Shown here piece by piece: positions 3,532 to 25,406 of a DNA stretch of 64,000 bases. Each line of letters starts with the position of its first letter. The first letter of the stretch is position 1. The notes below the pieces were generated by a model, which saw only the letters and a list, made by a program, of their open reading frames with translations, did no database searches and was not told the origin of the DNA. The DNA is from an uncultured cyanobacterium (GTDB lineage: Bacteria; Cyanobacteriota; Cyanobacteriia; Phormidesmidales; Phormidesmidaceae), in the NCBI GenBank assembly GCA_963793265.1, contig CAWBZI010000007.1, forward strand, positions 96,001 to 160,000. The letters run 5' to 3'. The translations under genes were made by a program, and so were the position numbers.

Positions 3532-4074
3532 ATGACCTCCACATTCACCAGTACTCTGCCCGATCTCTCGGGTAAAAACGATCCCATTGGGCCCTATAAA
3601 GGCGATCCACAGCTAGGCAATTTAGCAACGCCTATCAACAGCTCTAATCTGGTTAAGGCATACATTAATAACCTACCGGCCTATCGCCCTGGCCTAACGC
3701 CTTTTTTGAGGGGTCTAGAGATTGGCATGGCCCACGGCTACTTTTTAATTGGGCCAGAAATTGTAGTTGGCCCGCTGCGAGAGACGAGCCACGGCGCTAA
3801 TTTAGGTGGCTTAATTACGGCTATCTATATCACCGTATCGGCCTGCTTAGGTATTTCTATCTTCGCGCTAGCGACTTTCCAAAACGATCCTAGAGGCGCT
3901 TATAACTCTCATTCTAACGATCGACTGCGACCGCTTCGTAGCAAAGAAGACTGGTATCAGCTCAGCGGCGGTATTTTGCTTGGCTCTATGGGTGGCGCTA
4001 TTTTTGCCTATGGGCTATTGGAAAATTTTGACGCGCTAGATGCCATTTTGAGAGGGGCTGTTAATGCTGGTTGA
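3532..4074 (+). CDS. psaL2: Photosystem I subunit XI, far-red paralog
   Basis: GNLATPINSS, NNLPAYRPGL, RGLEIGMAHGYFL PsaL motifs. Confidence 0.95.
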   Translation: MTSTFTSTLPDLSGKNDPIGPYKGDPQLGNLATPINSSNLVKAYINNLPAYRPGLTPFLRGLEIGMAHGYFLIGPEIVVGPLRETSHGANLGGLITAIYITVSACLGISIFALATFQNDPRGAYNSHSNDRLRPLRSKEDWYQLSGGILLGSMGGAIFAYGLLENFDALDAILRGAVNAG

Positions 4075-4290: not shown

Positions 4291-4347
4291 GTAGGTTTAT
4301 CCGATTAACGCCCCTACGAGTTTTTGTTTCTTGCGAGGATATTTTCA

Positions 4348-4851
4348 ATGCGAAGGATATTTTCAATGCTGTTGATAGGGTCTATTTGGCTCGGTATGGC
4401 CTTTATAGCTCCGGTGGCTACGGCTGCTCAGCTTCCTGGTCAAAGCACTCATTTAGTGCCTTGCAGTCAGTCACCAGCATTTTTAGATCGAATGAAAGCT
4501 GCGCCGCAGACTTACTATTTCGATACACCCTATCAGTCTTATTCGTCTAACTTGCTCTGTGGGGCTGAAGGATTACCTCACTTGCAGCTAAGGTTTGATC
4601 GGGCGGTTGATATTGCCATTCCCTTTGCTATTTTCTTTTATGTCACTGGCTTTATTGGCTGGTCAGGCCGAGCCTACTTGATTGGAAGTAAAGACGATAA
4701 AAAGCCGGAAGAAATGGAGATCTTTATTAGTCCGGCGCTGGCTGCTCGCTCATTTTTGCAGGGGTTGCTCTGGCCACTAGCAGCGCTCAAAGCGCTAACC
4801 TCTGGCGAGCTGACGGCTGAGAAATCTAAGATCTCTGTATCACCTCGATAA
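4348..4851 (+). CDS. psaF2: Photosystem I subunit III, far-red paralog
   Basis: Signal peptide, LVPCSQSPAF, LCGAEGLPHL, GFIGWSGRAYL, C-terminal SVSPR; ATG 4348 has GAGGA RBS. Confidence 0.93.
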   Translation: MRRIFSMLLIGSIWLGMAFIAPVATAAQLPGQSTHLVPCSQSPAFLDRMKAAPQTYYFDTPYQSYSSNLLCGAEGLPHLQLRFDRAVDIAIPFAIFFYVTGFIGWSGRAYLIGSKDDKKPEEMEIFISPALAARSFLQGLLWPLAALKALTSGELTAEKSKISVSPR

Positions 4852-7209: not shown

Positions 7210-7242
7210 CCTCATTTGATACCGCATTTGGCTTCTTTAACG

Positions 7243-9795: not shown

Positions 9796-9848
9796 GGCGG
9801 CTTCAGAAGAATATCAGATTGTTTGTTTATACATCGGAGGAAAGACCT

Positions 9849-10247
9849 GTGAGGACTGTGACCGTGGCGACTAAGCGAATTTTGATTGTGGACGATGATC
9901 CTGATATTCGTGAGGCTACTCAGCTATGCCTTGAAATTACGGGGCAGTGGGAAGTGCTAAAGGCGGCAAATGGGCCGGATGGGATAGCGATCGCGCGGCA
10001 AGAAAAACCTGATGCGATTCTTTTGGACATGATGCTACCGGGTATGGACGGGCTAACAATCTTGCAGCGGCTGCGAGAAAATCCTGAGACGCGGCAGATT
10101 CCGATTGTTATTCTTACCGCTAAAGCGCAGTCTCATGAGCAGCAGTATTTCGGTCAGCTAAAAGTGGCTTCTGTGATTACAAAGCCATACGATCCGCTCA
10201 CTATCTCAGACCAGATCGCAACAGCGCTCACGGCTTCAGTTGATTAG
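9849..10247 (+). CDS. rfpC: CheY-like single-domain response regulator
   Basis: ILIVDDD, LLDMMLP, ITKPYDP; GTG start after GGAGGA; third gene of rfpBAC. Confidence 0.9.
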   Translation: MRTVTVATKRILIVDDDPDIREATQLCLEITGQWEVLKAANGPDGIAIARQEKPDAILLDMMLPGMDGLTILQRLRENPETRQIPIVILTAKAQSHEQQYFGQLKVASVITKPYDPLTISDQIATALTASVD

Positions 10248-10428: not shown

Positions 10429-10463
10429 CGCTCTCCATACCCTTAATGGAGAGCGCTTTCTTT
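10429..10463 (+). terminator. Intrinsic terminator-like hairpin downstream of rfpC
   Basis: CGCTCTCCAT / ATGGAGAGCG 10-bp stem followed by CTTTCTTT. Confidence 0.6.
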
Positions 10464-10570: not shown

Positions 10571-10798
10571 ATGCCTGTACAAACCGTTGGAACGCCGCCG
10601 CCCGAAGCCGATCAGCTACGCGCAGATGTTGAAAAGCAGCTCCCGAATATCATCGCTAGCTTTAGCGAGGTATTGCAAAAGCAGTTCGGCTTTGAGAATT
10701 TGAGAGTTGGTGGGTTCACCGTTGTTCCAGGATCCGCTGTTCCAGAAGCTGCCGAAAACAACATTTCTTGTGATGAGGAAGGCTGCTCTCTCGACTAG
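10571..10798 (+). CDS. Hypothetical 75-aa acidic protein with C-terminal CDEEGC
   Basis: ATG-started ORF with protein-like composition, co-oriented just upstream of psbA3. Confidence 0.7.
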   Translation: MPVQTVGTPPPEADQLRADVEKQLPNIIASFSEVLQKQFGFENLRVGGFTVVPGSAVPEAAENNISCDEEGCSLD

Positions 10799-10836: not shown

Positions 10837-10869
10837 CTTCATAACATCTCCATTTTGCTTTGTTCTAAT
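10837..10869 (+). promoter_or_regulatory. Direct-repeat motif CTTCAT-AACAT-CTCCAT upstream of psbA3 (candidate RfpB box)
   Basis: Matches motif found at four other promoters in the cluster; TCTAAT 10 nt downstream. Confidence 0.6.
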
Positions 10870-10907
10870 AGGCGTGGTCACTTAAATAACCCATCCTACA
10901 AAACAAA

Positions 10908-11987
10908 ATGACTATTTCTATCCAACGTCCTAACACAACCCAGTGGGAGAGATTCTGCCGCTGGATTACTAGCACCGAAAACCGACTGTATATCGGCTGG
11001 TTTGGCGTTTTGATGCTGCCGCTTTTGGGCGTTTCAATTACCGTTTTTGTCACGGCTTTTATTGCCGCGCCCCCGGTTGATATTGACGGCATTCGCGAGC
11101 CGCTATCGGGCTCACTGCTGTATGGCAACAATATTATTACCGCCGCTGTAGTCCCAACCTCTAACGCGGTCGGACTGCATTTTTACCCCATTTGGGAGGC
11201 TGCTACGCTTGATGAATGGCTCTATAACGGTGGGCCTTACCAGATGATCGCCTTCCACTATATTCCAGCGCTGCTCTGCTATTTAGGGCGAGAGTGGGAG
11301 TTGAGCTATCGATTAGGAATGCGCCCTTGGATTTGCATTGCCTACTCTGCACCCGTGGCGGCGACAATCTCAGTTTTTCTGATCTATCCGATTGGTCAGG
11401 GCAGCTTTTCTGACGGCCTGCCTATGGGCATCAGCGGCACTTTCAACTTCATGTTCGTTTTCCAGGCGGAGCACAACATTCTGATGCACCCGTTTCATAT
11501 GATCGGAGTTGCAGGTGTGCTGGGCGGTTCGCTCTTTTGTGCCATGCACGGTTCTCTGGTCACATCTAGTTTAATTAGAGAAACCTCTGACGTTGAGTCT
11601 CAAAACCAGGGCTATAAGTTTGGTCAGGAAGAAGAGACTTATAACATCCTTGCGGCTCACGGCTACTTTGGCCGGTTGATTTTTCAATACGCCAGCTTTA
11701 ATAACTCTCGCCAGCTACACTTTTTCTTAGCAGCGTGGCCTGTTATTTGCATTTGGATTGTGGCTCTGGGCATTAGCACCATGGCGTTCAACCTCAATGG
11801 CTTTAACTTCAACCATTCCGTGCTCGACTCTCAGGGCCGGGTGCTACCAAGCTGGGCAGATGTCGTGAATCGTGCAAGTTTGGGCTTTGAAGTGATGCAC
11901 GAGCGCAATGCTCATAACTTCCCGCTAGATTTGGCTAGTGGTGAGGCAACGCCTATCGCCCTGCAAGCGCCTGATATTCAGGCTTAG
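10908..11987 (+). CDS. psbA3: Photosystem II D1, far-red paralog (oxygen-evolving type)
   Basis: Mn-cluster ligand motifs intact ([26 protein letters not shown]); far-red signatures FHYIP, AATISVF and GLPMGISG. Confidence 0.92.
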
Positions 11988-12037
11988 CTTACGTTTGAAT
12001 TGGCGCTAGTTTAGCTTTCGCGGATACCTCCACAGCG

Positions 12038-12067
12038 GCGCTTTCCTTTTGCGAGAGCGCTTTCTTT
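12038..12067 (+). terminator. Intrinsic terminator-like hairpin after psbA3
   Basis: GCGCTTTC / GAGAGCGC stem then TTTCTTT. Confidence 0.55.
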
Positions 12068-12102
12068 GCCTTGGGAAAGATGCAGCTTCAATTCTGTTGC
12101 TG

Positions 12103-12140
12103 ACACCCAGTCAACACCCAGTCAACACCCAGTCAACACC
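12103..12140. repeat. Tandem 11-mer ACACCCAGTCA x3.5
   Basis: Read directly. Confidence 0.9.
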
Positions 12141-12255
12141 TACTTGGCACCTATCTTTGGCCGCAGATAGCTCTCTATCTAACGACAGATCATAAGCGAT
12201 CGCTATAACAACAGCCATATATCCTAATGCATATTGTTCTCATTTAGGGGGCGTC

Positions 12256-12288
12256 CTCCATAAGTTCTCCATATTTGTTTTTTAAATT
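12256..12288 (+). promoter_or_regulatory. CTCCAT-AAGTT-CTCCAT-N10-TAAATT promoter motif upstream of USP/CBS genes (candidate RfpB box plus -10)
   Basis: Perfect 6-bp direct repeat at 11-bp period with TANNNT exactly 10 nt downstream. Confidence 0.65.
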
Positions 12289-12296
12289 CTAAAGTA

Positions 12297-12326
12297 ACTA
12301 TCTACAGACGTACTATCTACAGACGT
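12297..12326. repeat. 15-bp tandem duplication ACTATCTACAGACGT x2
   Basis: Read directly. Confidence 0.9.
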
Positions 12327-12341
12327 AAAGAGACTCCCCTG

Positions 12342-12503
12342 ATGCCTTCTTCCCTTGAAAGCCCACCTATTAGCGCCTGTCAGTTCTTAGTGATTAGCTA
12401 CGGTAGTCAGCTACAGGGCGACGGCTCAGCGGGGATGCGATCGCGCCCTCGTCACAATTGAGCAATTCTTCAAAACCTACGGTCAAAGGCCATGACGTAC
12501 TAG
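12342..12503 (+). pseudogene. Possible decayed hydrogenase maturation protease (HoxW-like) N-terminus
   Basis: FLVISYGSQLQGDGSAG resembles LVIGYGNxLRGDDGAG; continues in frame past a TGA as AILQNLRSKAM, like WxLPNVRSLAV. Confidence 0.4.
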
Positions 12504-12581
12504 CGAAGCGCTATGTGCATAAGCCGCTTCAAAAATTAAAATGCACCGTTGAACTCATTTTCTTTTACCCCTTCTAACACC

Positions 12582-13169
12582 ATGTTCAAAAGAATTCTAG
12601 TTGCGCTCGACTCAGGGGATACCTGCTACGCTCTGTTTGATAAAGCATTAGCGTTAGCCCAAGCTACGGGTGCAAGTCTAATTTTGTTTAGTGCCCTAAA
12701 CGCAGAAGAAGATGCCAGTGTGCCTTCTGCTTACGCGCTTGTAGGCTATCCAATCGGGATTAATGACAGCGCTTGGAACAACTACCAGCAGCGCTACAAA
12801 GCCTATGAAGCTAGAGAGCTAGCGAAGCTACGAAATTTTGTTAAACGCGCTAAGACCGCGGGAATTCAGGCAGAGTTTGCTCAAACCTCGGGCCTTCCAG
12901 GACAGGCTATTTGCGATCGCGCCAAAGCCTGTAGGGTAGATTTGGTGATGGTAGGCAGTCATCGACGCCTGGGCATTAAAGAGCTGCTACTCGGCAGCGT
13001 AAGCAACTACGTTATGCATCATGCACCTTGCTCAGTCATGGTTGTTCATAATCAATCCACGACGCGACTGACCACTGGCATTTCAAACTCGCAAACTTCA
13101 AACTCGCAAACTTCAAACTTGCAAGCTTCAAACTTACAGAAGGAAATCTATCATGTTGACAGTCGCTGA
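12582..13169 (+). CDS. Universal stress protein (UspA family)
   Basis: MFKRILVALD start; DLVMVGSH...LLLGSVSNYVMHHAPCSVMVV. Confidence 0.92.
   Translation: MFKRILVALDSGDTCYALFDKALALAQATGASLILFSALNAEEDASVPSAYALVGYPIGINDSAWNNYQQRYKAYEARELAKLRNFVKRAKTAGIQAEFAQTSGLPGQAICDRAKACRVDLVMVGSHRRLGIKELLLGSVSNYVMHHAPCSVMVVHNQSTTRLTTGISNSQTSNSQTSNLQASNLQKEIYHVDSR
13082..13140. repeat. 15-nt tandem repeat x4 (TTCAAACTCGCAAAC) encoding the SNSQT/SNLQA tail of the USP
   Basis: Read directly. Confidence 0.85.
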
Positions 13170-13668
13170 TATTATGACCCCTAAAGTTTTTACGATTCGT
13201 AGCTCTGCAAAACTGACGCAGGCGATCTTGCTGATGCAACAAAAGCAGGTGCGATCGCTAATTGTTGAAAGAGAAGTTCAGGGCGGTGCTTATGGCATCT
13301 TAACCGGGCAGGACATTGTTTATAAAGCGACAGCTCGGTGCGTAGATCCTAGTAGCACGATGGTTTGTGAGCTGATGAGTTCGCCCTGTGTAGCCGTTGA
13401 GCCTGACTTGAGTTTGTCAGCACTTGCTAAGCGCTTTTTAGCAGCGGGTATACGAAGGGCTCCGGTGATTGAAGACAGTCAATTACTGGGCGTTGTTTCT
13501 ATTACAGATATCCTTATGAATAGCAATGTGGATTCGGTTCATTTGCCGTGCGATTTGTCTGAGCAGATTGAAGTTGCTTTGCGTCACAATCGGCTTAACT
13601 GGGCTGAAGATAATCAGATTGAGCGGGAGTGCGAAGCGGCTAGAAATGTGCTGAGCGAACTGAGCTAA
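13153..13668 (+). CDS. CBS-pair protein with degenerate C-terminal CP12-like helix pair
   Basis: LTVADIMT, YGILT, IRRAPVI...LLGVVSITDI CBS motifs; tail DLSEQIEVAL...ECEAARNVLSEL resembles the CP12 core. Confidence 0.8.
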   Translation: MLTVADIMTPKVFTIRSSAKLTQAILLMQQKQVRSLIVEREVQGGAYGILTGQDIVYKATARCVDPSSTMVCELMSSPCVAVEPDLSLSALAKRFLAAGIRRAPVIEDSQLLGVVSITDILMNSNVDSVHLPCDLSEQIEVALRHNRLNWAEDNQIERECEAARNVLSELS

Positions 13669-13674
13669 ATGCTA

Positions 13675-13708
13675 AGCCCCTACGGAAACAGCAATCTCCG
13701 TAGGGGCT
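13675..13708. terminator. Hairpin between convergent genes, built from GCCCCTAC/GTAGGGGC REP-like arms
   Basis: AGCCCCTACGGA / TCCGTAGGGGCT 12-bp stem. Confidence 0.6.
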
Positions 13709-13719
13709 ATAGCCGTTTA

Positions 13720-14259
13720 TTACGAACCTATATGAGCGCCCCAAGAAACCCAATTTTGAGCGTTTGAAGACGTTCCACAGGTTGTAACTTTTGTTAGATT
13801 TTTTAGGATTGCACCTTCGTAATCGGCAGATTCTAGCTCGCGAGCGTCTATATGAGCGCCCGTTAAATCGGCTTCGCACAGGTTAGCGCCGCTCAGTCGC
13901 ACGTTGCTAAGATCCGCGCCTCTCAAGTCAGCGCGCCTTAGATCAGCGGCTCGCAAATCAGCATTTGAGAAGTTTGCCCCTATAAGACTGGCCGCCTGTA
14001 AGTCAGCGCCAATAAAGTTTGTACTTTGGAGATTAGCGCCGTTCAGAGTTACACCCGTAAGATCAGCATCGGTAAGGTTGGCCTCTGAGAGGTTAGCCCG
14101 GCTGAGATCGGTATTGGTAAAGTCTGCGCTGCTAAGATCGCAACGACTGAAGTTAATACCAACAAGAGAGGTATTGTGCAGTATTACCCCTCGTAATGAC
14201 ATTTTTGCGAAGTTGCGATCGCCTTTGTTGAATTCTTGAATGAGCTGTCGAAATACCAT
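13720..14259 (-). CDS. Pentapeptide repeat protein
   Basis: Many A(D/N)Lxx repeats after a GDRNF-type N-cap; ATG at 14259 with GAGG RBS. Confidence 0.92.
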   Translation of the reverse strand: MVFRQLIQEFNKGDRNFAKMSLRGVILHNTSLVGINFSRCDLSSADFTNTDLSRANLSEANLTDADLTGVTLNGANLQSTNFIGADLQAASLIGANFSNADLRAADLRRADLRGADLSNVRLSGANLCEADLTGAHIDARELESADYEGAILKNLTKVTTCGTSSNAQNWVSWGAHIGS

Positions 14260-14398
14260 GAGAGTTTGCCTCAATAACACGTCTGTATGAGTGATTACCT
14301 ATCAACGCACCACTTGCCGAAACGATGCGCATGTAGGTCTGGCTATACAGCTTGCACATGCGGATAGAGCGGTGTGTTTTCTCTCTTCACACCGCTCT

Positions 14399-14431
14399 AT
14401 TGTATACGCAGAATATGGAGAACTTATGAGG
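14399..14431 (-). promoter_or_regulatory. CCTCAT-AAGTT-CTCCAT-N10-TACAAT promoter motif upstream of the pentapeptide gene (candidate RfpB box plus -10)
   Basis: Read on the reverse complement; shares CATAAGTTCTCCATATT with the USP promoter. Confidence 0.65.
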
Positions 14432-14546
14432 TTTCTTCAAACAGTGTTACTTAGCAAGGTATCGCAAAAGTGCGAATGCATCCGCACTTTTGCGCGCCGC
14501 TTAGCCCACAGTGCACAAAGACTTTAACGACTACTAATGTAGTAAG

Positions 14547-14738
14547 CTAAGTGGCCAAAACGATAGTACCGTTATAGAGCTGCAAGAGAATCAGCATGAA
14601 AACCAGCAGCAAAACCAGCATAACCGCCATAATCGGCGCTGTTCCCCAGCCAGGAGATACCCGGCCTGCTTCAGAGTTAAGCTTTCTCAAGGGGTATTGA
14701 AGCGGGGCAGCTTTGTTAGAAACGTACTTTTGAGCCAT
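14547..14738 (-). CDS. psbH2: Photosystem II PsbH, far-red paralog
   Basis: [21 protein letters not shown] motif plus TM helix; downstream of psbB2. Confidence 0.92.
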
Positions 14739-14751
14739 GATCTAGTCTCTA

Positions 14752-16281
14752 TTAAACAACTTTCTGACGAGAGGTCGGATCGCCTACTTTTGTGAAATAG
14801 CCCCACTCCACTTGTTCGGGGCTTAGCGTAGGGTCGATACCAGAGAATACGTCTTGGAAGATGGCTCGTAGGCCGTGCCAGATATGACCGAAAAACCAGA
14901 GTAGGGCAAAGCAGACATGGAAGAAGGCAAAGAAGCCGCGATTGCTGGTTCTAAACAGACCGTCTGAGTCGTAAACGTCGCGGTCGAACTCGAAGGGTTC
15001 TCCGAGCTGAGCTTTGCGAGCGTATTTTTCGACCGTTTTAGGATCGGTGAACGTTTGGCCGTCTAAATCGCCACCGGAGAAGCTGACGGTTACCCCAGTT
15101 TGTTCAATACCGTATTTGGCTTCTGCCTGACGGAAGGGAATATCGGCTCTCACTACACCGTCTTTGTCGAATAAGACAACTGGAAAGTTTTCAAAGAAGT
15201 TGGGTATTCGACGAACGATAAGCTCTCTGTTTTCGCCGTCTTTAAAGGTGGGATGGCCGAGCCAGGTTGTTGGAAGCCCGTCGCCATCCACCATACGACC
15301 TACCCGAAACAATCCCCCCTTAGCAGGACTGTTGCCTACATAGTCATAAAAAGCAAGCTTAGTCGGTACGCTATCCCAGGCTTGTGAAGGCGTTTTACCC
15401 TCGTTAAGATCGGCGTTTACCCGGCGGCTAATTTCTTGCTGAAAGTAGCCCTGATCCCACTGGTAGCGCGTGGGCCCCCACAGTTCGATTGGGGTTGTTG
15501 CTGTGCCGTACCACATGGTACCAGCGGCGATGAACGCGCCTGAGAAGAACACGGCCAGGCCGCTGGCAAGAACGCTTTCGATGTTGCCCATTCTAAGCAT
15601 TTGATAGAGGTATTGAGGCGGCCGCACTAGAATATGGAACAGTCCGCCAAGAATGGCAACAATGCCCAGGGCAATATGGTGCGCGACTACGCCACCTGGG
15701 TTTTGCGGATCAAATCCAGCAGGGCCCCAGTCTGGAGCGACGCCCTGAACGTGTCCGATGAGGCCGAAGGGATCGGAAACCCACATGCCGGGCCCGAAGA
15801 TGCCGGTTAGGTGAAATGCGCCAAAGCCGAAACACAGCAGCCCGGCGAGGGTGAGATGAATGCCGAAGACTTTGGGAAGATCGATCACAGGTTCGTTGGT
15901 TTTGGGATCGAAAAAGGTGGCAATGTCCCAGTAGACCCAGTGCCAGCAGGCGGCTAGGAAGGAGAGTCCAGAAAAGAGAATGTGGGCGATCGCAACCGTT
16001 TCAAATGTCCAAAAGCCTGGATTGATAAATGTCTCTCCGGTGACGCTCCAACCCTGCCAAGAGTTGACGACGCCTAAGCGAGCAACAAAGGGCATTAGGA
16101 AGCATCCCTGCCGCCACATTGGATTTAAGATTGCATCGCTAGGGTCGTAACGAGAGAGTTCAAACAGCAGCGTTGAACCGGCAAATCCAGCGCAGAGTGC
16201 GTTGTGCATCAGGTGCACGGCGATAAGTCGGCCTGGGTCGTTGAGAACAGAGGTGTGTACGCGATACCAGGGAAGTCCCAT
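14752..16281 (-). CDS. psbB2: Photosystem II CP47, far-red paralog
   Basis: [10 protein letters not shown] start, [16 protein letters not shown]. Confidence 0.95.
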
Positions 16282-16329
16282 GGCGTTTTCTCCTATGAGT
16301 TCAGGGCGGGTTGTGAGGATTGTTACCGA

Positions 16330-17778
16330 TTAGTCCGAGCGCATACTCGGATCGATAGGAGCCATCGAGAGTACGGGTTCGTTCTCTCGATCTAGACCAG
16401 TTTCAAAGCCAGCCGCAGCGGCTCTAGCTCGACCAGCGTGCCAAAGGTGGCCAACTAAAAAGAAGAAGCCAAAGATAAAATGAGCAGAGGCAAGCCAGGT
16501 TCTGGGCGAAACGTAGTTGAAGGCGTTAGACTCGGTGGCGAGCCCTGCAACAGAGTTGAGTGAGCCAATCGGGGAATGGGTCATGTATTCAGCGGCGCGG
16601 CGAACCTGCCAGGGCTGAACGTCGTTTTGCAGCCGTTCTAAGTCGAGGCCGTTGGTGCCGCGTAGTGGTTCGATCCAGGGGGCGCGGGCATCCCAAAAGC
16701 GCATGGTTTCGCCGCCAAAGATGATTTCTCCTGTGGGCGATCGCTGTAAATATTTCCCTAAGCCAGTTGGCCCCTGCGCTGAGGCTACGTCTGCCCCCAT
16801 ACCCTGATCTCTCATCAAGAACACAAACGATTGAGCCTGTGATGCTTCAGGTACGGTCGGCCCGTAAAAGGCACTTGGATACACCGTGTTGTTGAACCAA
16901 ATAAACGCTGTTGCAATAAACGCCTGCCCAGCGACGTTACCTAAGCTTTGAGAGAGATAGGTTTCGCCTGTCCAAGGAAAGAGATTATAAGTCCAGCGGA
17001 GGGGCGGTACTAAAATGTGCCATATGCCGCCGGCAATCAGGATGCAGCCAATCCAAATATGACCGCCGATGACATCTTCTAAGTTGTTGACGCTGACAAT
17101 CCAGCCTTCGCCGCCAGTTGGCTTCTTAATTAGATAGCCGAAGATAATTCGTGGATCTAGCGTAGGATGGCTGATCAGGCGAACGTCGCCGCCGCCAGGA
17201 GCCCAAGGATCGTATAGACCGCCCCAGTACATCGCTTTGGCTGAAAACAGTAGCGCAAAGACACCTAGAAGGGCAATGTGAAAGCCCAGAATTTGAGCAA
17301 CTTTGGCTTTGTCTGTCCAGTCAAACTGAAAGAAGCCGTACAGTTTTTCGGGCCCCTGGATCGCGTGATATAGGCCACCAATGCCGAGCACTGCCGAGCC
17401 GATCAGGTGTGCAACACCAATAGCAAAGAAGGGGAAGATACTGGTGATTTCTCCGTTCTGGCCAACGCCGATGCCGAGCGTGGCGATGTGGGGCATGAGG
17501 ATGCACCCTTGCTCGTACATTGGCTTGTACAGGCTGTAGTGAGAGACTTCAAATAGCAGCATTCCGCCTGCCCACAGGGCAACAAGGCCCGCATGAGCGA
17601 CATGGGCTCCTAAGAACCGACCCGTGAGTTCGGGGGTGATAAAGCGGGCGTTGCCTGCCCACCAGGCGTAGCCGCTAGAGGCTTCGTCGTAGCCAGCGCT
17701 TTGGGGCGCGAGGATAGAGCTGGTTTCAGCGGGGATAGTAATAGATAGATCTGGGATGGTTTCGATCGGCGTTTCCAT
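16330..17778 (-). CDS. psbC2: Photosystem II CP43, far-red paralog
   Basis: [29 protein letters not shown]; own ATG, does not overlap psbD. Confidence 0.95.
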
Positions 17779-17849
17779 GGGGGTTAGAACCTCTTAGGAT
17801 TGATTGTCTGGAGCATAGTTCTGGGTATTGTCCTAAAATTTGTTGAGCT

Positions 17850-18908
17850 TTATTCGGAGAAGCCACGGGGTAAGACTTCATCTGGAAAGACAAACTTTTT
17901 AGCGGGCTGATCCATTTCTGAAAGCCAGGCGCGAAGACCTTCATTGAGCAGAATGTTCTTGGTGTAGAAAGTCTCGAACTCGGGGTCTTCAGCGGCTCTA
18001 ATCTCCTGACTAACAAAGTCGTAGGCTCGTAGGTTAAACGCCAGCCCGGCCATACCGATTGCACTCATCCATAGGCCCGTGACGGGTACAAATAGCATGA
18101 AGAAATGCAGCCACCGTTTGTTAGAAAAGGCAATGCCGAAAATCTGCGACCAGAAGCGATTGGCAGTCACCATAGAGTAGGTTTCTTCTGCCTGATCGGT
18201 CGCAAAGCCTTTAAAGGTGTTCTTCCCTCGATTGTCTTCAAACAGCGTGTTTTGCACGGTGGCTCCGTGAATGGCGCACAGCAAAGCGCCTCCTAACACG
18301 CCCGTAACGCCCATCATGTGAAAGGGGTTGAGAGTGTAGTTGTGGAAGCCCTGAAAGAACAATAGGAATCGGAAGATTGCGGAGACGCCAAAGCCGGGGC
18401 CAAAGAACCAGCTTGATTGGCCGAGCGGATAGATGAGGAAGGTGGCAACAAAGACGGCAATTGGAGCAGAAAAGGCGATCGCATTATAAGGCCGAATGCC
18501 GACTAGCCTAGCCACTTCAATCTGTCGCAGCATAAATCCCATCAGGCCAAAAATGCCGTGGAAGGCGACAAACGTCCACAGTCCGCCGACTTGGAACCAG
18601 CGAACCAGACTACCCCCGGCTTCTGGGCCCCACAAAAGTAGGAGAGAATGGCCCATGCTTTCGGCAGGTGTAGAGACGGCAACCGTCAGAAAGTTGCAGC
18701 CTTCTAAATAAGACGAAACGAGGCCGTGAGTGTACCAGGAAGTAACAAACGTGGTGCCGGTAAACCAGCCGCCAAGTGCAAGAAATGAGCAGGGGAAAAG
18801 TAAAAGACCCGACCAGCCGATGAACACGAAGCGATCACGCTTCAGCCAGTCGTCAATCCCCCTTACCCAGTTTCCTCGGGAGGTAGGCAATCCTATTGTA
18901 ATGGTCAT
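17850..18908 (-). CDS. psbD3: Photosystem II D2, far-red paralog
   Basis: [46 protein letters not shown] in place of canonical HNWTLNPFH. Confidence 0.95.
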
Positions 18909-18942
18909 GATGATGTCCTTAAACTTAACTAATTAGGCGCGT

Positions 18943-19473
18943 TCAGGCAGCTTTGCGAACGCTGCTGTCTTTAATCCCAAAGTAGGAGGGGCCTGGCCGC
19001 ACCAGCTCTTGAATGATCTGGTCGAAGTAGGGGATAATGGCGGCGGCTTCGGGCTCTGAGAGAAGTGCGATCGCCTCAGCTCTTAGGCAGCGTAGGTACT
19101 GCAAAATGTTGTCTAAGGGAATGCCGATATTGGTATAGAGTTCTTTCATACCCAGCAGGCCGATCTCTCTTAGGGGGCGATCGCTTCCGGCTAATAAACA
19201 ATAGCTAATCAGCCGAACGTACCAGCTCATATCGCGCTGAGCTGCCTCAGTTTTTTTGCGGCTACCGCTATTGCTAGGCGTACGCGGGCATATCTGCCAG
19301 AATTTGCGAGTGCCTCTTTCTACAATAGCAGGCGCATGTTGTTCTAAAACCTTGGCGAGCTGAATTCGCTCTGTTCCTGTTTTACAAAAGCTGCGAATGG
19401 TCTGTAGCTCTCCGGGGGTTGGGTAGCGGAGTTCTTCGTCGGCGTCGATAATGACCTGTTTGACGATGCTCAT
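18943..19473 (-). CDS. apcD3: Far-red allophycocyanin alpha-type subunit lacking the canonical bilin Cys
   Basis: MSIVKQVIIDADEELRYP; EAAQRD where paralogs have ASCQRD/ASCLRD; FWQICP Cys present; follows apcE2. Confidence 0.9.
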   Translation of the reverse strand: MSIVKQVIIDADEELRYPTPGELQTIRSFCKTGTERIQLAKVLEQHAPAIVERGTRKFWQICPRTPSNSGSRKKTEAAQRDMSWYVRLISYCLLAGSDRPLREIGLLGMKELYTNIGIPLDNILQYLRCLRAEAIALLSEPEAAAIIPYFDQIIQELVRPGPSYFGIKDSSVRKAA

Positions 19474-19483
19474 AGGTTTAACC

Positions 19484-19660
19484 TCATCTAAACTTTGGGT
19501 AGATATGCACGCCGCCAAACCAGCTAATTGAGATGCGGTAGGCAAAAGGATTGATGTAGTGATGGGTTGTTTGGCTAGAGAGATTTGTGCTGGTAGCTGA
19601 TGTGACGATTAGCGGAACTTCTAGCGTGGAATGGGCTGGATTGTTTTGTTTGTTGTTCAT
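19484..19660 (-). CDS. Possible 58-aa microprotein between apcE2 and apcD3
   Basis: ATG-started ORF filling the spacer; its stop overlaps the apcD3 RBS (TGAGG); no obvious RBS of its own. Confidence 0.35.
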   Translation of the reverse strand: MNNKQNNPAHSTLEVPLIVTSATSTNLSSQTTHHYINPFAYRISISWFGGVHIYPKFR

Positions 19661-19684
19661 GGTTTTGTTGATGAAAGACGACAC

Positions 19685-21889
19685 CTAAGCCGTCACAACC
19701 TCAGACTCAACGCTTTCTTCGGCACTCTCTTCTTCAGCAACAATCGGGTCAGAAGCCACAAACTGATCTTCCTCAATAGGAACAGGCGACGGCGACGCGC
19801 TATGCGCTGAACCTATCAGTTTGTCACGGTCTGAAAGCGGCGAACTTGGTGCTTGCCCATTCCCATTTTCGCTGACGAGCCTATCTTTAGACGGCACATA
19901 GCGCATCATATAGGCTTCGACAGTCAGCGGATTCTCTCTTTGTTTCGCAAAGGCCGCTGGCCCCTGCGGATGTCTGGCACTAAGCCCGCGCGGCGTTATA
20001 TAGCGTTCGTAGGGAACCGTATCTTCCCCAAAGGCTTTCGCATATTCATCGCTATCAATAATGGCATCGATTAGGGCGTAGAAACCTTGACGACCACAGA
20101 TATCGTAGTATTTGTTGGTTTCTCTGCGGTCGTAAGTTGGTCTGCCGAGCAGCCGCCTGTGAATGACTTCAGCGGCTTTGGTTACATACAGATTTTCCCA
20201 GTAAGCCCGACGGAAAGCTTTTGTTTTTGCGAGCTTTCGGACAAACTCACGCATCGTAATACGGCCCCCTCTAAACTCGGTTTCGGCCACTAAGTCTCGC
20301 TGACTTGCCGAGATATCGCGGCCAAATACCTGACGGTAAGTCGCTAAGATAACGGCCTCAGTAGAATGGTGAGCGATGTGCCTGTGATGGCTACTGATTA
20401 AAATGCGACGGCTGTCTTCACTGAAGTGAGCAGGCTGAGCGTTTGGATGACGATTTTCCTGCGGGAAGATTGCGCCAAACTGAATCTCTAATGGGTCATT
20501 ACCGACACCGTAGGCGTGCTGGTTGGGTAAAGGCTGCTGATAGCCTGCAAAGGTGGTTACAAACTGTGGCACTTTGCGAACGGGCGCGCTGTATTTGAAC
20601 AGATCTAGCTGCGGCCCCCAGTTACGACACGCTTGAGCCTCTAAACCGATTCCTCTAAGGAAGGGAACGGTTTCTTCTCCAAAATAATCAGCGTATTCTT
20701 GAGAATCAACAAAGGCATCTACAACAGCCGGAAAACCCTTGTCTGCTATCAGTTCAAAGTACTTTTGGAATTCTTCCATACAGCTTAGGCCGCGCCCGAG
20801 AAAGTGGCGACAGGCTAGCTCGATAGATCGGCTAATGGTGTAGGGCTCGTAGTATAGCTGCCGGTAAAGCCGCGATTTCCCAAGCTGACGAACGAATGTT
20901 TTCATTGAACCTTGTTCGCTTTTTACCTGCGAGATTGGCTCGGCTAATACCCTATTGCCTACGTGAGACACATCTCGCTCAAGCACCTGTCGATAGGCTG
21001 CTTTTATCACTTCATCTTTTTCAATGTCGGGCAGCTCGTGCCGCATAATCCACCGCGGCTGAAGGCGACCGCTTTCTTCGTAGCTATCGGGGAGATACAG
21101 CCCTTGATGATGCTTGGAAACGCCTGGGCGCAAGCGATCCGAGGGCTTTTCAACGGTGTAGTCAGCAATCAGCACATCGAAGTATCGCTTTACCAAAGAA
21201 GCTGCTGCTGATTCAGGCCGGAAAAAAGAAAGAGACTTCCACTGCATTTCTCGTAAAGCAACAGCTGTAGCAACCGTGACGTTCTCGGGAATAACGCCTC
21301 GAAGCCCTTTTGTATTAATGGTGATAATGCTAGTGTCACCAGCGACAATTGCATAGGTGATATATCGCAAAAACCAGCCTAAGTCTCTCATAGAGCGCTT
21401 CATTCGCACCGCACCGTAGTCAGAGATGCTAATGGCCTGAAAGTTGCTCGGAAGGCTAGGCTTGCCACTAAAGAACAGCCCTTTAACCCAATCAAGCGGA
21501 CTCTCAAAGGTATTTACTTTCGTATGGTCGTCTGTTCCACCGTGCTCTTTACGAACCCTATCTGCCGCAGAGAGGTAGTCTTCGGCTATGTAGTATCCTG
21601 ACCCTGGCAGTCCTAGCGGGTCTTCTGGCTTTTCAAAGTAATCCATTGGATTGCCGCCGACAAAAATGCGCTTGCCGCCAGCAGCTACGATGGTATCGGC
21701 ATGCTCACTCAGGGTTTGGGCAATCGACAGGCGGGCTCTGCCTGAAGATAAAAAAGCCGAGAGTTCTTTTATTTCATTTTGGGTGAGGTAGCGATCGCGC
21801 TGTTGCGCACTATCAATTACAGTGGTCGGCACCGTACGATACTGTTGCGGGCATACCACCGGGCTGCCCCCATTAATCCGATCAGCCAT
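19685..21889 (-). CDS. apcE2: Far-red phycobilisome core-membrane linker (two REP domains)
   Basis: MKRSMRDLGWFLRY; GVIPENVT replaces the ENACS chromophore Cys; two linker REP domains. Confidence 0.95.
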   Translation of the reverse strand: MADRINGGSPVVCPQQYRTVPTTVIDSAQQRDRYLTQNEIKELSAFLSSGRARLSIAQTLSEHADTIVAAGGKRIFVGGNPMDYFEKPEDPLGLPGSGYYIAEDYLSAADRVRKEHGGTDDHTKVNTFESPLDWVKGLFFSGKPSLPSNFQAISISDYGAVRMKRSMRDLGWFLRYITYAIVAGDTSIITINTKGLRGVIPENVTVATAVALREMQWKSLSFFRPESAAASLVKRYFDVLIADYTVEKPSDRLRPGVSKHHQGLYLPDSYEESGRLQPRWIMRHELPDIEKDEVIKAAYRQVLERDVSHVGNRVLAEPISQVKSEQGSMKTFVRQLGKSRLYRQLYYEPYTISRSIELACRHFLGRGLSCMEEFQKYFELIADKGFPAVVDAFVDSQEYADYFGEETVPFLRGIGLEAQACRNWGPQLDLFKYSAPVRKVPQFVTTFAGYQQPLPNQHAYGVGNDPLEIQFGAIFPQENRHPNAQPAHFSEDSRRILISSHHRHIAHHSTEAVILATYRQVFGRDISASQRDLVAETEFRGGRITMREFVRKLAKTKAFRRAYWENLYVTKAAEVIHRRLLGRPTYDRRETNKYYDICGRQGFYALIDAIIDSDEYAKAFGEDTVPYERYITPRGLSARHPQGPAAFAKQRENPLTVEAYMMRYVPSKDRLVSENGNGQAPSSPLSDRDKLIGSAHSASPSPVPIEEDQFVASDPIVAEEESAEESVESEVVTA

Positions 21890-21951
21890 AGCGGCCTCCA
21901 AACAAATTCAACACATTATTTTCAGCAATCAGCTTTAGACTCGTCAGCCGC

Positions 21952-22431
21952 TCAGGGCATTAAGCCTGCAATGAGATAGTCAAAGTACGGGCCGACTTCA
22001 GCGACATCTTCTAAGCTCAACATTTCTAGCGTCACCTCTTTAAGCGCGCGCATACAGTCTGCTAGGTTCCTGAGCGGAACGCCGAGAGACTGATACATTT
22101 CTTTTGCGCCTCTGACGCCGCTATCTTCAAGCGGATCTACGTCGCCTGCGGCTACCGCATAAGAAATCAGCCTAATAAACCACGCCTGGTCGCGCAGACA
22201 CGAAGCCTGGAATCGCTCGTTTTCAGCATTGCTAGGGGTAATGGGGCATCGCTGCCAAAACCTTTGGCTTCCCTTTTGAACAATCTCTTCTACATTACTG
22301 TTGAGAATTGAGACAATTCTCAATCGCTGCGATCCGTTATGGAAAAATCTCTCAACGGCGTCAAGTTCGCCTTTAGACAAGTAGCGAACTTCGCGGTCGG
22401 CGGTTGCGATCGCCTGAGTAATCACGCTCAT
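21952..22431 (-). CDS. apcD2: Far-red allophycocyanin alpha-type subunit
   Basis: MSVITQAIATADREVRYLS, FWQRCP, ASCLRDQAWF; between apcB2 and apcE2. Confidence 0.88.
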   Translation of the reverse strand: MSVITQAIATADREVRYLSKGELDAVERFFHNGSQRLRIVSILNSNVEEIVQKGSQRFWQRCPITPSNAENERFQASCLRDQAWFIRLISYAVAAGDVDPLEDSGVRGAKEMYQSLGVPLRNLADCMRALKEVTLEMLSLEDVAEVGPYFDYLIAGLMP

Positions 22432-22488
22432 AATAAACAGCCCTAACACAGCATAGACATTAACAAAGGCGATGCAATACTTCTACTA

Positions 22489-22974
22489 CTAGCTCAGCCC
22501 AGAGCCAATGTGATCAAAGTAAGCGCCCACTTCTCGACCGGCTTCAGCGCCTATCATATCGGTGACTACTTCTTTCATGGCCTGCACCGAACGCACAGTT
22601 GCGCCTACGGGTACGCCCAAAGAGTTGTAAGTCTCTTTCAGACCGTTCAGTACACGCTCATCTAGAATTGACGGATCGCCTGCTAGCATGGCATAGGTCG
22701 CGTAGCGTAGAAAGAAATCCATATCCCGAACGCAGGCAGCGTAACGACGACAGGTGTACATGTTGCCACCAGGCGCGGTGATATCGGTGTATAGCAATGA
22801 TTTTGCGACTGTTTTAGTCACAATCACAGAGGCATTAGCGCTGATTGTCATAGCGGCTCTTGCTCTTAAGTCGCCGCTGCGAAAGTATTGCTGCAGCGTG
22901 TCTAAAGATGAGTCATCTAAATACTTGCCTTGAGCGTCAGAAGCGTTAATGAGCGTGGTGATAGCGTCTTGCAT
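22489..22974 (-). CDS. apcB2: Far-red allophycocyanin beta subunit
   Basis: [27 protein letters not shown]. Confidence 0.93.
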
Positions 22975-23028
22975 GGGCGTTCTCCTACAGGGGGTAATCA
23001 AAATAGGTAGTTGCTGAAAGAAAGGCTT

Positions 23029-23505
23029 TTAGGACAGAGATTGGATGATCAGATCGAAGTAGGCAGAGACTTCTTGAGCATCTTCATCGCTCAGCACTGC
23101 CATGGCTTCTTCTTTTAAACAGCGCATACACTCGGCAATATTCCGAATAGGAATCTCTAAGTTGTTGTACATCTCTTTGATGCCTACTGTACCAATATCT
23201 TCTAGCGGGCGTTCGCTGCCTGCTAAAACAGCGTATGCAATCAAACGCACGTACCAGCCCTGATCGCGCTGGCAGGAAGCGGTTTTACGGTCATTGCCGC
23301 TATTGCTAGGCGTGTTGGGGCATCGCTCCCAAAACTTTTGGCTACCGCGCTCAACAATCTGCTGTTCGTTTTCAGCGAGGGCCTTAGCAATGCGTACCCG
23401 CTGTTCTCCTGTTTTCACGAAGTCTTGAAAAATGCGGAGTTCTTTAGGGGCAGGATAACGAGCTTCACTGTCTGCGCTCAAGATGAGTTCTGTAACTAGG
23501 CTCAT
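23029..23505 (-). CDS. apcD5: Far-red allophycocyanin alpha-type subunit (ApcD5, also called ApcA2)
   Basis: MSLVTELILSADSEARYP, FWERCPNTPSN, ASCQRDQGWY; first gene of the apc run. Confidence 0.85.
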   Translation of the reverse strand: MSLVTELILSADSEARYPAPKELRIFQDFVKTGEQRVRIAKALAENEQQIVERGSQKFWERCPNTPSNSGNDRKTASCQRDQGWYVRLIAYAVLAGSERPLEDIGTVGIKEMYNNLEIPIRNIAECMRCLKEEAMAVLSDEDAQEVSAYFDLIIQSLS

Positions 23506-23536
23506 AACAACGTGTCCTTTTATGGAAGTGGCTATT

Positions 23537-23569
23537 ACCCTAAACAACAAACATGAAGAACCTATGAAA
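23537..23569 (-). promoter_or_regulatory. TTTCAT-AGGTT-CTTCAT-N10-TAGGGT promoter motif for the apcD5 operon (candidate RfpB box plus -10)
   Basis: Mirror copy of the motif at 23635-23651. Confidence 0.7.
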
Positions 23570-23634
23570 AGAAAAAGATATCTTCCAAGCTCTGTTGACT
23601 TAAGTTAAACCAAGGAAAAGCTGTACGCTTTCCT

Positions 23635-23667
23635 CTTCATAGGTTTTTCATGTTTTCACGCTATATC
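23635..23667 (+). promoter_or_regulatory. CTTCAT-AGGTT-TTTCAT-N10-TATATC promoter motif for psbO2 (candidate RfpB box)
   Basis: TTCATAGGTTYTTCATGTTT is present on both strands of this divergent spacer with one mismatch in 20 nt. Confidence 0.7.
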
Positions 23668-23717
23668 TGTTAGGTGAGCCACTGAGCTAAACCTTTAAAA
23701 CTCACCTAACAAAGCCT

Positions 23718-24578
23718 ATGTTTTTAACTAAAAAGATACCGTACAAAGCGATCGCCGTATCATTCTTAGCCCTTTGCTTAGGACTGCTAACGGCCTGTAG
23801 CAATAGCCCAACGATAGGCAGTGGCTCACTTAGCTATGACGATATTAAGGGTAGCGGACTAGCGAATAACTGCCCTCAGCTTACAGGCACCAATATGGAT
23901 TCGATAGCTGTAGAAGGAGAGCAGCCTTACCAGCTCAAAGCGCTTTGCATACATCCTGAAACGTTCTTAGTGAAGCGGGAGAGTCCGTTAACCCGCCAGG
24001 GAAAACGTCAGGAAGGTAAGTTTGTAGAAAGTAAGCTGTTGACCCGCGAGAGTTCTACGCTCGATCAGGTTAGTGGTGTGCTGCAAAGTGCTCCCGACGG
24101 CAGCTTGACTTTTATCGAGCGAGGCGGATTTGACTTTCAGCCGATTACCGTTCAGCTACCGGATGGTGAACGTGTGCCTGTTTTGTTTACGGTGAAGGGA
24201 CTGGTGGCGAATACTCAAGCAGCGATCACAGCACTTACTCCATCTACCCGGCTATCAGGAAGCTTTGACGTACCGCCCTATCGAACCTCTAGCTTTATCG
24301 ATCCAAAGGGTCGTGGGCTTGCGGTGGGTTACGATGCGGCAGTTGGCATTCCTATTCAGGCGGATAGAGACAAGTTTTCTAAGCAAAACAACAAGTCTTT
24401 TGACATGGCGAAAGGACGTATTGTGCTGCAAATAGAAAAAGTGAATCAGAGAACCGGAGAACTTTCGGGTCAGTTCGAGAGTCAGCAGCCTTCGGATACT
24501 GATTTTGGCACGAAAGAAGCCATGACCGTCAAGATTCAAGGGACATTTTACGGACGTGTTGAGCCAGAGATTGCGTAG
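23718..24578 (+). CDS. psbO2: Photosystem II Mn-stabilising protein paralog
   Basis: LSYDDIKGSGLANNCP, DFQPITVQLPDGERVP, FIDPKGRG, QPSDTDFG. Confidence 0.9.
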   Translation: MFLTKKIPYKAIAVSFLALCLGLLTACSNSPTIGSGSLSYDDIKGSGLANNCPQLTGTNMDSIAVEGEQPYQLKALCIHPETFLVKRESPLTRQGKRQEGKFVESKLLTRESSTLDQVSGVLQSAPDGSLTFIERGGFDFQPITVQLPDGERVPVLFTVKGLVANTQAAITALTPSTRLSGSFDVPPYRTSSFIDPKGRGLAVGYDAAVGIPIQADRDKFSKQNNKSFDMAKGRIVLQIEKVNQRTGELSGQFESQQPSDTDFGTKEAMTVKIQGTFYGRVEPEIA

Positions 24579-24605: not shown

Positions 24606-24836
24606 ATGATTGGGAAACTAAGCCTAGAACAAGAACTTGAGCTGAAGATTTTGAGCGATCAAGCCCAGCGGCTGTCTCTTGATCAGGCTCAAAGGTATAT
24701 CGTTGAAGTAATGCGGCAAATGATGGTTAGAGACAATCTATTAAGCCATCTATTAACAGAAACCGGGCTTCCTCAAGAACAGTATACGCAGTCTATTATT
24801 TTTCAGGGAAAGTCTTCCTGGTACGAAGGAACTTAA
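24606..24836 (+). CDS. nblA: Phycobilisome degradation adaptor NblA-family protein
   Basis: LSLEQE...LSLDQAQ...QMMVRDNL matches the NblA pattern. Confidence 0.8.
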   Translation: MIGKLSLEQELELKILSDQAQRLSLDQAQRYIVEVMRQMMVRDNLLSHLLTETGLPQEQYTQSIIFQGKSSWYEGT

Positions 24837-24890: not shown

Positions 24891-25406
24891 ATGATTCGTG
24901 TTCTTAAAAAGATTCTGGCTAGTGCCGCCGCTTTGTATGCGATTGTAACGGCTTTGATGATAGCGTTTGCCTGGACGAGTAGTGCGATCGCACTTGAAAT
25001 CGACGCCCCCCTTCGCACGGTACCGCTCAATGATACGGGTGAACAAACGACGCTGACCATTGAGCAGATTATGCTCGGACAGCAAAAGTTTAATAGTAGC
25101 TGCGCTCAGTGCCATATAGACGGCAGCACAAAGCCTAATCCCGATGTAGATTTGAGCACTCAAACGCTTGCGCTCGCCACACCTTCGCGCGACAGCGTTA
25201 GCAGCCTGCTGGACTATCTCGATCATCCCACTACTTATGACGGGCTGCGATCGCTAGCCGATCTGCACCCGTCTACGCTGAATCTCGATCTTTTTCCTAG
25301 AATGCAGGGTTTGTCTAGGAGTGATTTGGAGGCGATCGCAGGCTACATTTTAGCGGAGCCTAATATTGTTGGAGAGCGGTGGGGCGGCGGTAAACCCAAG
25401 CGGTAA
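24891..25406 (+). CDS. psbV2: Cytochrome c550 paralog
   Basis: Signal peptide, RTVPLN, CAQCH, PTTYDG, LHPS, WGGGK. Confidence 0.88.
   Translation: MIRVLKKILASAAALYAIVTALMIAFAWTSSAIALEIDAPLRTVPLNDTGEQTTLTIEQIMLGQQKFNSSCAQCHIDGSTKPNPDVDLSTQTLALATPSRDSVSSLLDYLDHPTTYDGLRSLADLHPSTLNLDLFPRMQGLSRSDLEAIAGYILAEPNIVGERWGGGKPKR

Follow-up and report, generated by a model that had tools for sequence, protein, structure and literature searches.

A direct-repeat box before the far-red genes of an uncultured cyanobacterium, a probable operator of RfpB

The window analysed here is a 64,000-nucleotide stretch (G000:C7:96001-160000) of the genome of an uncultured cyanobacterium of the Phormidesmidaceae (5,677,707 bp, or 5.68 Mb), and open reading frames (ORFs) together with NCBIfam and Pfam searches place a far-red light photoacclimation (FaRLiP) cluster in its first 25.4 kb. 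Five sites in this cluster carry the same short direct repeat, called the box below; all five are intergenic and each is oriented toward the next gene. A sixth box, 2.6 kb to the left of the window, stands before chlF and was found by relaxing one position of the pattern (Table 1). The box is a real and conserved feature, and very probably a functional one. We give a probability of roughly 0.7 to the reading that the boxes are activator sites of the far-red promoters, and that the phosphorylated regulator RfpB (RfpB~P) is predicted to bind each of them as a head-to-tail dimer and to recruit polymerase. The targets predicted in this way include the universal stress protein (usp) and CBS-domain gene pair and the gene of a pentapeptide-repeat protein.

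The box at the head of the far-red genes

At all six sites the box consists of two 7-bp direct repeats of the form TYTYCAT (for example TCTCCAT, TCTTCAT or TTTTCAT), separated by a 4-bp spacer and thus repeating with a period of 11 bp; this count includes one base ahead of the 17-mer listed in Table 1. Behind the box lie a T-rich spacer of 10 nt and a hexamer, so that every site measures 17 + 10 + 6 = 33 nt, and the distance from box to start codon ranges in this genome from 55 to 277 nt. An earlier note on this DNA had listed the five sites of the window and proposed that they are the RfpB operator; direct reading of the sequence returned all five at the coordinates and on the strands it gave, as well as the hexamers 10 nt behind them, which are TAAATT, TACAAT and TAGGGT (TANNNT) at three sites and TATATC and TCTAAT at the other two. 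With chlF included, TANNNT fits the hexamer at four of the six sites.

The pattern YYYCATARNNTYTYCAT has five matches in the window and none in any of 100 dinucleotide-preserving shuffles, and on both strands of the whole genome it finds the same five sites only. A 45-nt matrix built from 37 sites, all taken from other genomes, was then run over 11,354,798 positions of this genome, and its four best scores fall on the boxes of apcD5 (44.9 bits), usp (40.0), psbO2 (36.1) and chlF (33.1), the next best position reaching 20.6 bits. The pentapeptide box scores 15.7 bits (rank 9 genome-wide), and the psbA3 box is weak with this cross-genome matrix, at 4.0 bits. No other intergenic gap of the cluster rises above -4 bits, the gaps scored including those before rfpB, rfpA, rfpC, psaB2, psaL2, psaF2, nblA and psbV2 and those before psbB2, psbC2, psbD3, apcD3, apcE2, apcD2 and apcB2. 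There is accordingly no box before rfpB, rfpA or rfpC, where the best scores are -12.6, -10.5 and -4.2 bits, nor in the internal gaps of the apcD5-psbB2 operon. An earlier 40-nt matrix, derived solely from the chlF sites of 10 relatives, gave chlF, usp and apcD5 as its top three and scored the psbA3, pentapeptide and psbO2 sites below 12 bits; it was over-fitted and was superseded by the 37-site matrix. The pattern YYYCATANNNTYTYCAT was also set aside, since over 46 genomes of the genus it gives 0-6 matches per genome and catches T-rich background such as TTTCATATTTTTTTCAT, which makes it non-discriminating on its own.

The boxes would define six transcription units, namely chlF-psaA2-B2-L2-F2, psbA3, usp-CBS, the pentapeptide gene, apcD5 to psbB2, and psbO2-nblA-psbV2. 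Terminator-like hairpins after rfpC (10429-10455) and after psbA3, ahead of the usp box (12037-12061), fit separate transcription units. Judged from their promoters, the usp-CBS pair and the pentapeptide gene appear to be extra far-red targets in this genome.

Three of the leaders have peculiarities of their own. The usp leader contains a 15-nt tandem duplication (ACTATCTACAGACGT twice, 12296-12330, + strand), the pentapeptide leader a hairpin with an 11-bp stem (AGAGCGGTGTG...CACACCGCTCT, 14355-14395, - strand), and the psbO2 leader a hairpin at 23668-23711 that resembles the one of the pentapeptide leader.

Conservation and promoter layout

Ten further genomes of the genus have ChlF orthologues of 75-83% identity, and five more orthologues were found among 401 genomes of the phylum, belonging to three other families. 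Comparison with 19 further far-red genomes showed the box before chlF, psaA2, psbA3, apcD5 and psbO2 there as well, which brings the families to four in all. Far-red loci of 20 genomes, together 580,174 bases, contain 51 matches to a relaxed pattern, YYYCAT-N5-YYYCA[TG]; 42 of them lie upstream of and co-oriented with chlF, psaA2, psbA3, apcD5, psbO2, usp, the pentapeptide gene or a second CheY-like gene, while the other nine compare with 7.9 expected at the background rate of this genome (13.6 per Mb).

Within the genus, the 300 nt upstream of chlF can be aligned among 11 genomes in one block only, which reads TGTAACTTTT..AAA, about 12 nt, CTCCAT-NNGTT-CTCCAT, 10 T-rich nt and TANNNT, the hexamer being present in 11/11. 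The version of this genome, TGTAACTTTTCCTAAA (16 nt) followed by 11 nt and the 33-nt module, spans about 60 nt, and the block is kept in all 11. The box also stands before apcD5 in nine further genomes of the genus, and the psbO2 box of the relatives reads CTTCAT[AG]AGTTCTYCAG, 10 nt and TANNTC (seven genomes). The same layout recurs in genomes of distant families: before chlF in G153, G432, G236 and G324, before psaA2 in G153, G432, G236 and G324 (there at a second locus), before a second CheY-like gene in G432, and before a psbA3-chlF pair in G343. Half-sites in the distant families are CTTCAT, the promoter-proximal one being sometimes CAG. Between these loci and those of the genus, the position and orientation of the box relative to matched genes are conserved while the flanking DNA does not align.

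The TGTAACTTTT element, about 28 nt upstream of the chlF box, is itself conserved in the genus. Its TGTAAC was considered as an NtcA-, CRP- or HLR1-like site and set aside, the spacing being at odds with those consensus sequences. Directly after the predicted chlF start lies a hairpin-like ATCAATCGGGATAGGTTGAT (L001 7440-7500, equal to G000:C7:93440-93500), which is conserved in the chlF leaders of the genus and weaker in this genome.

At none of the boxes did a consensus scan call a sigma-70-type -35/-10 pair. The hexamers that lie 16-18 nt ahead of the presumed -10 match TTGACA at one or two of six positions (four of six at psbA3), and the box covers the place expected for a -35 hexamer, with nothing like TTGACA there. 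The spacing of 10 nt between box and TANNNT is fixed in 11/11 chlF sites of the genus, the start positions themselves being predicted. Together with the placement before first genes in 20 genomes, this comparative evidence upholds the earlier proposal that the box sets the promoter architecture of the cluster. At psbA3 the hexamer TCTAAT is preceded by TGT, and the box with TTTGT-TC[TC][AG]AT is kept in 4/4 psbA3 promoters of the genus; an extended -10 (TGn) may thus stand ahead of a weak hexamer.

RfpB and other candidate readers of the box

Binding by RfpB is the best reading of the box because an OmpR/PhoB-class RfpB is encoded in the cluster itself, where rfpB is the only DNA-binding gene found. 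According to Pfam the protein (642 aa) comprises a receiver, a Trans_reg_C winged helix (residues 147-221), an Hpt domain and a second receiver, and its first 230 residues form a complete OmpR/PhoB-class module (E 1.7e-45 to DrrD, 1kgs; similar for RpaA and BasR). The same receiver, winged helix-turn-helix (wHTH), Hpt and receiver layout is presumably that of RcaC, a regulator to which we return below. In this genome the recognition helix carries TVTSH in RfpB only.

The model that we favour would run as follows. In far-red light RfpA would pass phosphate via RfpC to RfpB, as published genetics indicates in the portions of the two papers available to us (PMC5737509, PMC10127269). The winged helix of RfpB would read the two TCAT-containing repeats, and RfpB~P would sit head to tail on them at about -39 to -23, standing in for the absent -35 contact, as PhoB does at the pho box, on what would be a -10-only promoter. 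The transcription start would be expected some 7 nt behind the hexamer. We infer the identity of the protein, the transcription start and the sigma contact from the sequence.

A close parallel is the pho box, which has two 7-bp CTGTCAT repeats with a 4-bp spacer bound by a tandem PhoB dimer (PMC4447250), and which in E. coli lies close to the -10 and as a rule stands in for the -35 (PMC4971064). The 7 + 4 + 7 layout, the 11-bp period and the OmpR/PhoB class of the regulator are alike in the two systems, and the far-red box probably also takes the place of a -35 beside the -10. The half-sites differ, CTGTCAT there against TCTCCAT or TCTTCAT here (sharing TCAT), as does the signal, which is phosphate for PhoB and far-red light through a phytochrome here; RfpB moreover adds an Hpt domain and a second receiver, and its binding and sigma contact are predictions. 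Other light-colour regulators of the OmpR class, RcaC on the L-box and CcaR on the G-box, also act on short repeated boxes, at phycobiliprotein promoters, and in the terms of PMC5737509 the L-box is an inverted motif, the G-box being a direct repeat. These regulators depend on the cyanobacteriochromes RcaE and CcaS as sensors, unlike RfpB, and by that description their box sequences differ as well.

As a hypothesis the box is already known, since both the motif class and its link to RfpB are in print. Antonaru et al. (bioRxiv 10.1101/2024.05.15.594131), in the portions of their preprint that we draw on, describe conserved T-rich motifs in all FaRLiP lineages within 440 bp upstream of their targets, which are chlF, apc, psa, psbA3, psbO and rfpD genes, with none before rfpABC. 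They distinguish a chlF motif of ~61 bp, a long class of ~59 bp and a short class of ~33 bp, hypothesise an interaction with RfpB, and obtained no known role from Tomtom; citing Liu et al. 2023 and a thesis, they also state that the chlF upstream region drives a far-red-induced reporter with RfpABC and that the conserved region is required. Their ~33-bp 3' region would correspond to the 17 + 10 + 6 nt described here, an identity judged from lengths, positions and gene lists, and their chlF motif has a 5' region and a ~12-bp gap, as does the block of 16 + 11 + 33 nt in this genome. The targets of the box here include chlF, psbA3, apcD5 and psbO2, as in their class, and in addition, by prediction, usp and the pentapeptide gene; the available main text of the preprint does not contain the terms 'direct repeat', 'universal stress', 'pentapeptide' or 'nblA'. 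With both motif and RfpB hypothesis in the public domain, the window is mainly one more well-behaved instance. What may be new is the explicit pho-box-type architecture of the far-red box, the prediction that usp-CBS and the pentapeptide gene have far-red promoters in this genome, and the finding that the box accompanies RfpB-like systems in a genus of which four genomes were checked for chlF and yielded none. The DNA target of RfpB matters as the missing link in the path from the phytochrome RfpA through RfpC and RfpB to some 20 genes, and the 33-bp module, with its two half-sites and fixed -10, gives an exact probe for electrophoretic mobility shift assays (EMSA) or footprinting and a design rule by which synthetic biology could build far-red-inducible promoters.

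The box is not confined to far-red clusters. In a scan of 401 cyanobacterial genomes, the pattern YYYCATNNGTTYTYCAK-N10-TA gave 59 matches, of which 16 lie in seven far-red-cluster genomes (all six ChlF-positive ones and G040, which has an apc/psb far-red cluster), 19 in a genus designated g21, and 24 elsewhere. The reversed pattern, run as a control, gave 24 matches as well, and outside the far-red-cluster genomes and g21 the box is thus at background level. In g21 there is one match in each of the 19 sampled genomes, near-identical throughout (CTTCATAAGTTCTTCAGGTTTTAGTTTTA), with the box CTTCATAAGTTCTTCAG followed by 10 nt and TAAGTT or TATGTT. In the three genomes fetched, the genes of a PAS histidine kinase and of a CheY protein precede this box, and their products share 45-47% identity with the C-terminal half of RfpA and with RfpC. 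Two ORFs, a membrane one of 72 aa and a cysteine-rich one of 70 aa, follow the box at about 75 nt. A search for ChlF in four g21 genomes, with all candidates scored, showed PsbA-level matches only (at most 59% identity), and the same four each encode an RfpB-like regulator of about 640-650 aa. In G213 (L053), the one genome in which gene order was examined, the gene of a 647-aa receiver-wHTH-Hpt-receiver protein with a recognition helix of the RfpB type stands ahead of those for a PAS2-GAF-PHY phytochrome kinase and a CheY, in the order of rfpB-rfpA-rfpC, at a place in the genome apart from the box.

The recognition helix reads EEAVTAHIKGLRQKL in two g21 genomes, EDTVTAHIKGLRQKL in the distant RfpBs and EETVTSH[IM]KGLRRKL in the RfpBs of the genus, and the g21 data, as far as sequences go, support a tie between an RfpB-type helix and the box. 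A tree of the receiver-wHTH parts of 32 regulators collapsed into an unresolved polytomy within a clade of 97/99 support and leaves the placement of the g21 proteins relative to the RfpBs unsettled. A covariation of helix and half-site was also considered (TVTSH with CTCCAT in the genus, TVTAH with CTTCAT in distant genomes); it is seen at chlF and fails at apcD5 and psbO2, whose boxes in the genus use TTTCAT or CTTCAT. Given the g21 matches, the box is no strict marker of FaRLiP, and as a lead it may also work outside far-red clusters. A tentative and rather doubtful extension is that the box predates far-red photoacclimation and reaches beyond it, and would be the operator of a whole phytochrome-linked RfpB/RcaC-like subfamily. 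By this logic the usp-CBS pair and the pentapeptide protein would be under direct far-red control in the window.

Several points weigh against RfpB as the reader, or against reading too much into the box. This genome encodes four more large RfpB-like regulators (E 1e-68 to 1e-116). A box-like CTTCATAATTTACTCAG with TACTGT 10 nt behind it (G000:C6:438146-438162, + strand; 20.6 bits, rank 5 genome-wide) lies inside an RfpB-paralogue locus, 40 nt before a 129-aa ORF and between the gene of a 631-aa paralogue and kinase-CheY genes; a similar box precedes an RfpB-like paralogue in two relatives (L030, L041). The near-identical box of g21 occurs in genomes without ChlF (the four checked). Because of this paralogue-locus site and the ChlF-less genomes, the box type is not unique to RfpB, and another member of the family could read it. 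Fifteen of the 42 promoter matches are not independent, because their loci were chosen for holding a match to the pattern. The -10 assignment of the hexamers is one that we infer, and two of the five in the window (TCTAAT, TATATC) are poor, the psbO2 hexamer ending in C in the relatives too. In the available text of Liu et al. 2023 (PMC10127269), only 1/10 of the far-red-cluster promoter fragments was far-red-inducible in Chlorogloeopsis, namely PchlF of Leptolyngbya JSC-1, and the chlF, psbA3 and apcD5 fragments of Synechococcus 7335 were unresponsive, for which the authors blame divergence of RfpB or weak promoters; they describe the search for RfpB-interacting motifs as ongoing. The box alone is no guarantee of induction in another host. 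The searched literature yielded no RfpB-binding experiment on this DNA.

The first alternative is that the box is a genuine far-red or light-quality element read by another protein, either an RcaC/RfpB-like paralogue or a small accessory regulator, with RfpB acting upstream of that reader or at the TGTAAC element. The paralogues, the boxes at their loci and in ChlF-less genomes, and the second conserved chlF element TGTAACTTTT lend it some weight; we nonetheless consider it unlikely, since the paralogues carry VRTH or VKAH in place of the TVTSH helix, the strict box is found in this genome in the far-red cluster alone, no DNA-binding gene other than rfpB was found there, and the published knock-outs, within the available portions of the two papers, need RfpB for expression of the cluster (PMC10127269, PMC5737509). 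It is still less probable that the box is a promoter recognition element, an unusual -35-like region for an alternative sigma factor made or activated in far-red light. The fixed distance to a -10-like hexamer and the lack of TTGACA would agree with this, yet a tandem repeat of 17-18 bp whose units recur every 11 bp is the hallmark of an OmpR/PhoB dimer, whereas sigma region 4 reads one hexamer, and ORF and family annotation placed no sigma-factor gene in the cluster. A likeness devoid of regulatory meaning, through a short repeated or mobile sequence or through chance, is barely credible: the flanks are T-rich and relatives show a recurrent background of low-complexity variants such as TTTCATATTTTTTTCAT, but the shuffled sequences gave no match, all genome-wide matches fall inside the cluster, position and orientation before orthologous genes are kept over four families amid unalignable DNA, and background matches in the phylum equal the reversed control.

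Gene map and neighbouring features

The genes and boxes are collected in Table 1. The start of apcD5 is read as the ATG at 23505, judged from the sequence and from the G040 homologue.

Table 1. Boxes and genes of the far-red cluster, and boxes of the genus g21. Plain positions of boxes 1-5 and of genes are those of the window; C7 marks contig positions.
Feature	Position	Strand	Details
Box 1, psbA3	10837-10853	+	CTTCATAACATCTCCAT, 10 nt, TCTAAT at 10864-10869
Box 2, usp-CBS pair	12256-12272	+	CTCCATAAGTTCTCCAT, 10 nt, TAAATT at 12283-12288
Box 3, pentapeptide gene	14431-14415	-	CCTCATAAGTTCTCCAT, 10 nt, TACAAT at 14404-14399
Box 4, apcD5 operon	23569-23553	-	TTTCATAGGTTCTTCAT, 10 nt, TAGGGT at 23542-23537
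Box 5, psbO2-nblA-psbV2	23635-23651	+	CTTCATAGGTTTTTCAT, 10 nt, TATATC at 23662-23667
Sixth box, chlF	G000:C7:93406-93422	+	CTCCATATCTTCTCCAT, 10 nt, TACGCT; 76 nt before ATG
chlF	C7:93498-94631		just left of the window
psaA2 (3' part)	1-975	+
psaB2	1102-3333	+
psaL2	3532-4074	+
psaF2	4324-4851	+
rfpB	5281-7209	+	Pfam; NCBIfam OmpR/PhoB-class matches
rfpA, phytochrome histidine kinase	7216-9795	+
rfpC, CheY-type receiver	9819-10247	+
psbA3, target of box 1	10908-11987	+	TIGR01151 psbA, 715 bits
usp, universal stress protein family, predicted target of box 2	12549-13169	+	Pfam Usp 8e-30
CBS-domain gene, predicted target of box 2	13153-13668	+	overlaps usp; Pfam CBS 3.8e-22
Pentapeptide-repeat gene, predicted target of box 3	13720-14280	-	NCBIfam penta_HetL 4.5e-36, under cutoff
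apcD5-apcB2-apcD2-apcE2-apcD3-psbD3-psbC2-psbB2, target operon of box 4	14752-23505	-	NCBIfam
psbO2, target of box 5	23718-24578	+	Pfam MSP 9.6e-96
nblA paralogue, target of box 5	24606-24836	+	Pfam NblA 7.9e-16
psbV-like gene (psbV2), target of box 5	24891-25406	+	TIGR03045
g21 box, L045 (G213)	10043-10059	-
g21 box, L046 (G374)	7946-7962	+
g21 box, L047 (G442)	7752-7768	+

The nblA paralogue is flanked by psbO2 and the psbV-like gene and stands downstream of a far-red box; this position is kept in at least seven relatives. A psbO-nblA-psbV operon is mentioned for Synechococcus 7335 in PMC8689208, and nblA behind a far-red box would tie the breakdown of the white-light antenna to far-red induction.

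A 75-aa ORF at 10571-10798 (+ strand), between rfpC and the psbA3 box, has no family match; its C-terminal end ..NISCDEEGCSLD is kept in one relative (G016), and it is therefore possibly a real small gene. On its far side, the far-red cluster is directly adjoined by two large type I polyketide synthases (1572 and 1215 aa; 25419-33736, - strand) with a fatty-acyl-AMP ligase start module.

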